This document shows positions 17,875 to 17,979 of a stretch of 26,089 bases of DNA, in pieces. Source of the stretch: an uncultured virus (IMG/VR IMGVR_UViG_3300044700_000221) (lineage: Duplodnaviria; Heunggongvirae; Uroviricota; Caudoviricetes). A program made the position numbers and the translations under genes. Every line of letters starts with the position of its first letter. Positions within the stretch are counted from its first letter, which is position 1. The notes beneath the pieces were generated by a model. The model saw only the letters and a program-made list of their open reading frames with translations, was not told where the DNA came from and ran no database searches. The stretch lies in the IMG/VR virus record IMGVR_UViG_3300044700_000221; one strand, given 5' to 3'.

Positions 17875-17979
17875 AACCAGGTTCACCCCTCTCTCTGGTG
17901 GGTAAGCATTACAGAGAGAGGGGAGGAGAAGGCCAACCTAAGAAAGGGGGTAACAGGTTGGCACCTGGTTACTTCTCCT
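17875..17979 (-). ncRNA. Putative structured RNA: four-stem pseudoknot, unknown class (strand inferred from flanking genes)
   Basis: Perfect pairings 17875-82/17963-70 (8 bp), 17886-97/17912-23 (12 bp), 17932-39/17955-62 (8 bp), 17924-31/17972-79 (8 bp). Confidence 0.7.

Follow-up and report, generated by a model that had tools for sequence, protein, structure and literature searches.

The minus-strand spacer between a 121-aa gene and an HNH/His-Me finger endonuclease gene in the uncultured Caudoviricetes contig IMGVR_UViG_3300044700_000221 (26,089 nucleotides (nt) in full, hereafter the window) raises the question of what kind of RNA its 153 nt encode and on which message that RNA works. The original prediction, made from the letters alone, had proposed a minus-strand, trans-acting small RNA (sRNA) that displays anti-Shine-Dalgarno (anti-SD) sequences and masks ribosome-binding sites (RBSs) of phage or host mRNAs. 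We find in the spacer a 109-nt minus-strand RNA element (17983-17875) that is almost certainly a conserved structured RNA, with the predicted architecture of a double pseudoknot that has the topology of the hepatitis delta virus (HDV) ribozyme and a different conserved core. We put at roughly one in two the probability that this element is a cis-acting RNA domain, co-transcribed with the leftward replication/repair block, which acts through its fold on its own transcript.

Along the RNA, the helix strands follow the order P1(5')-P2(5')-P3 hairpin-P1(3')-P4 hairpin-J4/2-P2(3'), with P1 crossing P2 to form a nested double pseudoknot (Table 1). The predicted fold of the 159-nt spacer has an energy of -60.2 kcal/mol (z -3.5), and a 117-nt element folded alone gives -48.3 kcal/mol with P2, P3 and P4. 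Covariation was evaluated in an alignment of 30 sequences (A3) with a model not fitted to P1. Overall, 85.7% of the cells were paired against 65.8% after shuffling, and the covariation score of 0.537 (0.190 shuffled) was reached in none of 500 shuffles; sliding the partners by one column left 52-57% of the cells paired, and slides of one to three columns 43-57%. Helix by helix, P4 was paired in 96.6% of cells with two-sided changes in five of eight pairs, P1 in 94.1% with two-sided changes in five of eight pairs and up to four pair types, and P3 in 88.1% with two-sided changes in six of seven pairs. P2 is out of register in this alignment (62.5% paired); averaged sequence by sequence, it forms 6.3 contiguous pairs with its own partner versus 4.3 with the partners of other members, and across the members its two strands occur in ten or more different complementary combinations. 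The cells of P1, P3 and P4 hold 45 G.U against 11 A.C combinations; therefore, the RNA has the minus-strand sequence and runs in the sense of the flanking genes. This excess bears out the strand assignment of the original prediction and contradicts the alternative offered with it, a plus-strand decoy displaying SD sequences.

About 25 nucleotides are conserved, and they are placed in the junctions and one loop. The invariant bases cluster at the P1/P4 junction (the 5' CGUAA, AGG:CCU at the base of P1, CCC:GGG at the base of P4 and the G-A of J4/2, which reads N-G-A) and in the P3 loop, and the final CCU of the P1 3' strand joins the start of P4 in an invariant CCUCCC. A core placed in this way appears to resemble those of ribozymes and aptamers rather than plain stabilizing hairpins. 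In the window, the upstream 121-aa gene terminates with the UAA at 17981-17979; CGUAAGG (window 17977-17983) is also kept where its UAA is not the upstream stop, namely in L030, L230 and the L214 clade (L-numbers denote loci). The UAA is the real upstream stop in the window, in L003-type loci, L014, L222, L245/L284 and L249, and it is a second in-frame stop 3-6 nt past the real one in L312, L227 and L030; in L230/L115 and the L214 clade, the open reading frame (ORF) uses another frame and stops 10 or 17 nt before it.

The P3 loop carries CCUUUC in all 29 tabulated members, 13 of which read UCCUUUCU; most of the 29 were found by a pattern requiring CCUUUC. Among 14 elements found without the motif, it is kept in 12 (seven of seven anchored on the HNH protein and five of seven from a loop-free scan), a favourable outcome of the loop-conservation check that had been named beforehand. 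The motif always lies within the hairpin loop, and the loop of L227 is little more than CCUUUC. In L014/L084 (element at L084:1867-2020), an insertion of ~35 nt with an extra hairpin sits within the P3 loop, which still ends in CCUUUC directly before the P3 3' strand. Among 29 distinct members, J4/2 begins with C in 19, with U in nine and with A in the remaining one; the window's UGA holds no C. A 2-bp helix between the 5' CG and J4/2 (C5-G and G6-Y) would account for the C/U alternation as G-C or G.U; its variation is one-sided and it fails in L227, which has A, and we set it aside as unproven.

The search anchored on the HNH protein kept 80 loci of 112. Within the 32 close HNH loci (L003-L034; HNH proteins 67-83% identical), the element lies directly upstream of the HNH gene in 12 and further upstream in L010, and in the remaining 19 its place is taken by a canonical terminator or another gene; therefore, the element is not part of the HNH cassette. 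Pattern scans gave 23 loci in IMG/VR, of which 21 were judged real and two lack P1 complementarity, and 106 loci in metagenome contigs. A covariance model (R1) scored 22 of the first 100 metagenome loci at 44.2-119.3 bits and the rest at 20.1 bits or less. The loop-free pattern (CGTAAGG..TNYCCTCCCY) matched at least 119 loci, with only known members among the matches listed. Clades that carry the element away from HNH genes are L214/L221/L225, L217/L219/L236, L222, L227, L245/L284, L249 and L321, and, from another loop-free scan, L423, L429, L394 and L413, the last of which is probably a family member with a score of only 19.5 bits. Each of five phage records, four of them 100% complete at 92-99 kb, holds a single copy. 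In 185,579 prokaryote species genomes, 34 pattern hits were obtained and none scored above 17.7 bits; Rfam 15, its HDV-type models included, gave no match to the window (17700-18100, E up to 10) or to six diverse members (E up to 1). A description of the motif was not found in broad literature searches, which cannot show that it is unpublished. The family is known from phage and metagenome contigs only and was previously uncatalogued.

The genes flanking the element differ between clades both upstream and downstream, which argues against a gene-specific riboswitch or leader, and we ruled that reading out. Downstream genes encode HNH, lytic-transglycosylase-like, RHH-like, membrane and other proteins, as judged by sequence (only window proteins were scanned against Pfam and PHROGs). 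In most members, the element starts 0-17 nt after the stop of the upstream ORF. Past the P2 3' strand, no cross-clade conservation was found. Another conserved word, (G)CUUUCCACCACCG, lies 10-25 nt past the element in L253, L275, L285 and L328 and stands just ahead of the SD of the next gene in L245/L284; these two clades are otherwise different, and the word is absent from the window's clade. The HNH cassette sits immediately 3' of the last helix strand in L114, L115, L084, L030, L257, L278 and L312 (window 17826-17875), and the element lineages with an adjoining cassette differ in all helix sequences. The conserved DNA of the element may be, or may adjoin, the homing target of the endonuclease.

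Table 1 Features of the element and its surroundings in the window (P, helix; J4/2, segment leading into the P2 3' strand)
Feature	Position	Strand	Sequence, pairing and remarks
Invariant 5' CGUAA	17983-17979	-	C, G, U, A and A invariant in 28/28 and 30/30 sequences
P1 5' strand	17979-17972	-	AGGAGAAG; SD-like; pairs with 17931-17924
U between P1 5' and P2 5'	17971	-	
P2 5' strand (P1 of the original prediction)	17970-17963	-	AACCAGGU; pairs with 17882-17875, crossing P1
P3 hairpin	17962-17932	-	Stem GCCAACCU (17962-17955) with AGGUUGGC (17939-17932)
P3 loop (L3)	17954-17940	-	GUUACCCCCUUUCUU; CCUUUC at 17947-17942
P1 3' strand (P1' "anti-SD" of the original prediction)	17931-17924	-	CUUCUCCU; only the final CCU conserved
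P4 hairpin (P2 of the original prediction)	17923-17886	-	Stem CCCCUCUCUCUG (17923-17912) with CAGAGAGAGGGG (17897-17886); basal CCC/GGG pairs conserved
P4 loop	17911-17898	-	UAAUGCUUACCCAC; length and sequence vary freely, as does apical P4
J4/2 UGA	17885-17883	-	N-G-A across the family
P2 3' strand	17882-17875	-	ACCUGGUU; 3' end of the element
Upstream gene	17979-18344	-	121 aa, Myb/SANT-like W-T-x-E-E pattern
HNH / His-Me finger endonuclease gene	17355-17825	-	156 aa
HNH leader, outside the element	17870-17831	-	-10-like TAGACT 17870-17865; hairpin 17862-17840; SD AAGGAGG 17837-17831

The sequences on which trans regulation had been based were each confirmed at their coordinates, but of the three motifs claimed, comparison with homologues leaves only one standing. 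The hexamer UUACCC is indeed present in both loops (GGGTAA on the plus strand at 17900-17905 and 17948-17953), but it is not conserved in homologues; the P4 loop, which holds the second copy, has no conservation whatever, and GGGTAA is a common hexamer in the window (20 occurrences against 12.58 expected, with at least 20 in 5 of 100 shuffles). The strand CUUCUCCU, taken for a displayed anti-SD matching the RBS of the Pyr_excise/DenV gene, is instead the 3' strand of the covarying P1, its partner being the 7-8 nt past the upstream stop (in the window AGGAGAAG, directly after the stop codon). Across members, the first five bases of this strand vary freely, each time with an exact partner (GGAGAAG, GGAAAGA, GGGCAAG, GGACUGC, GGAUGCC, GGGUUAC and others), and only its CCU is conserved; therefore, the DenV match is specific to the window. 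The word AGGAGAAG occurs four times in the window against 0.80 expected, a count that none of 100 shuffles reached: one site lies at 17342-17349 (minus strand) ahead of the Pyr_excise/DenV gene, another is the P1 5' strand itself (17972-17979, minus strand), and a further one is the complement of the P1 3' strand (17924-17931, plus strand).

The complementarity of the P3 loop to AGAAAGG likewise stood in part: both sites are real (minus strand, 18726-18732 and 24508-24514), but the window has no excess of the word (6 occurrences, 3.82 expected, with at least 6 in 24 of 100 shuffles). The minus strand at 24508-24514 reads AGAAAGGGUAGCA-AUG ahead of the DUF1281_C gene, and 8 nt of the loop are complementary to AGAAAGGG, which lies 5 nt ahead of the DUF1281_C AUG; the site at 18726-18732 is only 1 nt from an AUG. 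The loop had also been likened to ACCUCCUUUCU, which the original prediction gave as the actinobacterial 16S rRNA 3' end. Of the regions upstream of 33 long ORFs, 13 contain AAGG, 17 GGAG or GAGG and 2 GAAAGG, and since SD-like words are this common there, any anti-SD-like pyrimidine tract must match several RBSs. No GAAAGG partner is conserved within 300 nt in 26 members. The duplex energies of the pyrimidine tracts with downstream SDs do not differ between own and cross combinations: the pyrimidine strand gives -10.2 kcal/mol with its own SD versus -9.5 +/- 3.1 kcal/mol with the SDs of other members, and L3 gives -6.3 kcal/mol with its own SD versus -6.8 with others. The "anti-SD-like" tracts are built-in parts of the fold (CUUCUCCU forms one side of a helix, and CCUCC runs across the P1/P4 stack), and their complementarity to RBSs is no evidence of trans regulation.

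These results bear directly on a trans-acting or processed sRNA, in which the P3 loop (YCCUUUCU) would mask phage or host SDs and the pseudoknot would serve as a nuclease-resistant scaffold. The retention of the loop motif in elements found without it, its frequent form UCCUUUCU, its constant placement in a hairpin loop and the 8-nt match to AGAAAGGG all suit such an RNA, and pairing of a C-rich-loop sRNA with purine-rich mRNA sites exists in actinobacteria in the case of the 6C sRNA (PMC6486639). We nevertheless consider it improbable, since the putative targets are neither enriched nor co-varying by the counts and energies given above, GAAAGG precedes only 2 of the 33 ORFs, two lineages lost the motif and kept the fold, and a scaffold role leaves many invariant junction bases unexplained. 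The element is not an sRNA gene with signals of its own either: on the minus strand it is flanked by neither a promoter-like nor a terminator-like site, and it starts at the upstream stop codon. An intrinsic terminator is ruled out as well, there being no U-tract after P4 or P2. Invariance in single-stranded bases and in a loop is typical of recognition surfaces, and the element could be bound by a protein or the ribosome or act as a decoy for either. Examples would be a site at which a phage translational repressor traps the mRNA in the pseudoknot, and an RNA imitating the 16S 3' tail so as to titrate a host factor or a host endoribonuclease toxin directed at anti-SD-like sequences. CCUCC(C) and CCUUUC together resemble that tail, CCUCCUUUCU, and the single copy per genome fits too; set against this are the burial of CCUCCC in the P1/P4 stack and the lack of a conserved neighbouring gene for a dedicated partner, and we regard this role as rather unlikely.

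A trap for the RBS of the HNH gene, as in phage T4, can be constructed from the same strand. Read-through transcripts would pair UGGCCUUCU with the HNH SD (AGGAGGUCA) and block translation, and transcripts from the TAGACT promoter would lack the pyrimidine strand and so be translated. The minimum free energy structure of the 159-nt spacer does pair 17937-17929 with the SD region at 17838-17830, the -10-like TAGACT lies between element and SD and is conserved in most of the L003-L034 HNH loci, and I-TevI, segB and mobE of T4 set a precedent (in the portion of PMC2988022 that was seen). However, the pyrimidine strand is the 3' strand of P1 and covaries with the P1 5' strand, not with the SD, its duplex with its own SD lies within the spread found for the SDs of other members, the element occurs without any HNH gene in at least eight clades, and 19 of the 32 close HNH loci do without the element. 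Such a trap is, in our estimate, highly unlikely.

We therefore return to the cis-acting domain. That the element acts in cis through its fold is on balance probable; that it does so by site-specific processing or self-cleavage in particular, in our view the likeliest single activity, is doubtful. Its gene independence, its phage-only occurrence and its junction core of ~25 bases favour an autonomous module, resembling a small ribozyme, over stabilizing hairpins or gene-specific regulators. Such a processing or insulating module would act on its own polycistronic transcript via the fold and not by pairing with RBSs in trans. With a start 0-17 nt after the upstream stop, the fold would form only once the terminating ribosome has left, and the RNA might then be processed at the invariant junction, either by self-cleavage with a non-HDV chemistry or by way of a nuclease, through cleavage or blockage. 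The downstream cistron (in the window the HNH mRNA with its own -10-like TAGACT) would then have a fate independent of that of the upstream message.

Several observations weigh against this proposal. The non-HNH members were mostly found by patterns requiring CGTAAGG and CCTCCC, and often CCTTTC, so that the search itself accounts in part for how invariant those motifs are. CCUUUC is missing in L429 (loop CCCCCAUAGUU) and L413 (loop ...AACCUCUGU), in which the four helices are kept; the P3-loop motif is therefore not strictly required. The catalytic cytosine of HDV is not conserved, and U-bearing members still covary among themselves, which excludes HDV-type chemistry; self-cleavage would require a different, unproven one. 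One clade has an upstream ORF ending 59 nt away, and the distance from the element to the next start runs from 24 to ~194 nt; with stop and start distances this variable, a single translational logic is not obvious. Four RNA runs contain 4-7% of the window words, with four short contigs on 17355-17447 and 18030-18344; these RNA-library contigs leave the element uncovered, and cleavage or accumulation is not visible either way.

Whether the element founds a new class of catalytic or ribosome-directed RNA is a tentative idea that we think unlikely to hold. In one possible form, it would be self-cleaving, re-using the HDV architecture with an active site made of the J4/2 G-A and CGUAA and no catalytic cytosine; in the other, it could display the halves of the 16S 3' tail (CCUCC and CCUUUC) and capture SDs or an anti-SD-recognizing factor or toxin. 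If catalytic, it would mean that the HDV fold supports a second chemistry, and freshwater actinophages, which are abundant and uncultured, would have yielded a further class of ribozyme. A regulatory role would make it an uncommon case of a complex, gene-independent RNA module at a cistron boundary of phage operons.

The surroundings of the element fit an actinophage. The window has a G+C content of 43-49%, the sequencing runs containing its DNA are freshwater, lake or drinking-water metagenomes, and the annotated phages of INPHARED hold no DNA-level relative of the region. A Pfam/PHROG scan identified RecA/UvsX-like, Cas4-like exonuclease, SNF2 helicase and DenV-like Pyr_excise products together with WhiB, a glycosyltransferase, an AAA_5 ATPase, a DUF1281_C protein and a DpdA-like tRNA-ribosyltransferase PHROG, and on the strength of these assignments the gene set is of actinophage type. 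The last of these products, a 480-aa protein (11778-13220, plus strand), matches the PHROG "queuine tRNA-ribosyltransferase" (phrog_887, E 2.1e-37) and no Pfam family, which suggests a DpdA-like 7-deazaguanine DNA-modification enzyme in the window phage. The 121-aa protein upstream of the element has no Pfam hit and a weak PHROG hit to "transcriptional regulator", and, used as a query alone or as an alignment, it re-found only the same contigs. In L276 (800-1192) and L312 (559-960), the gene directly upstream of the element ends in ...TPVAQLRVK or ...TPYSQLRVK and resembles in size and position the DUF7376-like 122-aa gene of the window (18356-18724, minus strand), which lies one gene further upstream than the Myb-like gene. 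If the two are the same gene, the Myb-like gene would be an insertion between it and the element.

The 156-aa HNH protein matches HNH_3 and zf-His_Me_endon, each below the curated cut-off, and phrog_826 (E 6.9e-27), and its gene is probably a free-standing homing endonuclease gene. A group I intron around it is ruled out, the HNH stop being only 15 nt from the next gene. Its leader, with TAGACT or a one-base variant, the hairpin and the SD, is common to most L003-L034 HNH loci whatever lies upstream, and is not evident in L010, L031 and L032. TAAACT or TAGGCT replaces TAGACT in a few, and the hairpin loop GCAAYYGUG is conserved on a covarying stem. By analogy with the T4 intron endonucleases, this leader could be the cassette's own promoter with an operator or autoregulatory site.

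Among known systems, the C-rich-loop sRNAs offer the first comparison, a type of base-pairing RNA represented in Gram-positive bacteria by RsaE. Like the actinobacterial 6C/B11 RNAs, the element has a pyrimidine-rich loop motif complementary to purine-rich, RBS-like sequences. Unlike them, it is no separate gene: it lies within an operon, begins at a stop codon and is without a promoter or terminator of its own. Many more invariant bases belong to its pseudoknotted core, and neither target enrichment nor co-evolution with targets was seen for its loop. The leaders of the T4 endonucleases I-TevI, segB and mobE share with it a structured RNA ahead of a free-standing HNH gene, a promoter-like element between the two, and a pyrimidine strand that could pair with the SD in long transcripts; here, by contrast, the SD pairing is without covariation support, and the element and the endonuclease gene each occur alone.

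HDV-like ribozymes are defined by a nested double pseudoknot whose helices make up two coaxial stacks, and by a G.U pair at the base of P1 and a cut directly 5' of it, with no sequence requirement upstream. Like these RNAs (HDV, CPEB3, drz and theta of gut phages), the element has crossing P1 and P2 and hairpins P3 and P4, in the identical helix order; the P3 3' strand runs straight into the P1 3' strand, a J4/2 of 3-5 nt leads into the P2 3' strand, the conserved bases lie where the 5' end, the P1 base and J4/2 meet, and the RNA occurs in phage genomes independently of particular neighbouring genes. The first base of J4/2 is most often C, frequently as CGAA. One could suppose that the element is a true HDV-like ribozyme with its cut directly 5' of P1 and that the copies bearing U, that of the window among them, are dead relics. 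Phages are known to carry HDV-like ribozymes, and a C-to-U change at the first position of J4/2 inactivates them (PMC10879173, PMC13635239). We judge this supposition very improbable. The nine U members and the one A member keep their helices by covariation. The basal A-U of P1 abuts the first C-G of P4 with no bases between the two helices, and L3 is without a G for the following C run; hence there is no counterpart of P1.1, the two-base-pair helix that links L3 to the joiner past the P1 3' strand in HDV-like ribozymes. P3 is long, with 4-9 bp and loops of 6-17 nt carrying the conserved CCUUUC, in place of a short P3/L3; the P1 base is A-U in 29 of 30 members and not G.U; four invariant bases (CGUA) precede P1; and the HDV-type models of Rfam gave no hit in the searches described above. 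The element is thus not a member of the HDV-like family, with which it shares the topology of the fold.

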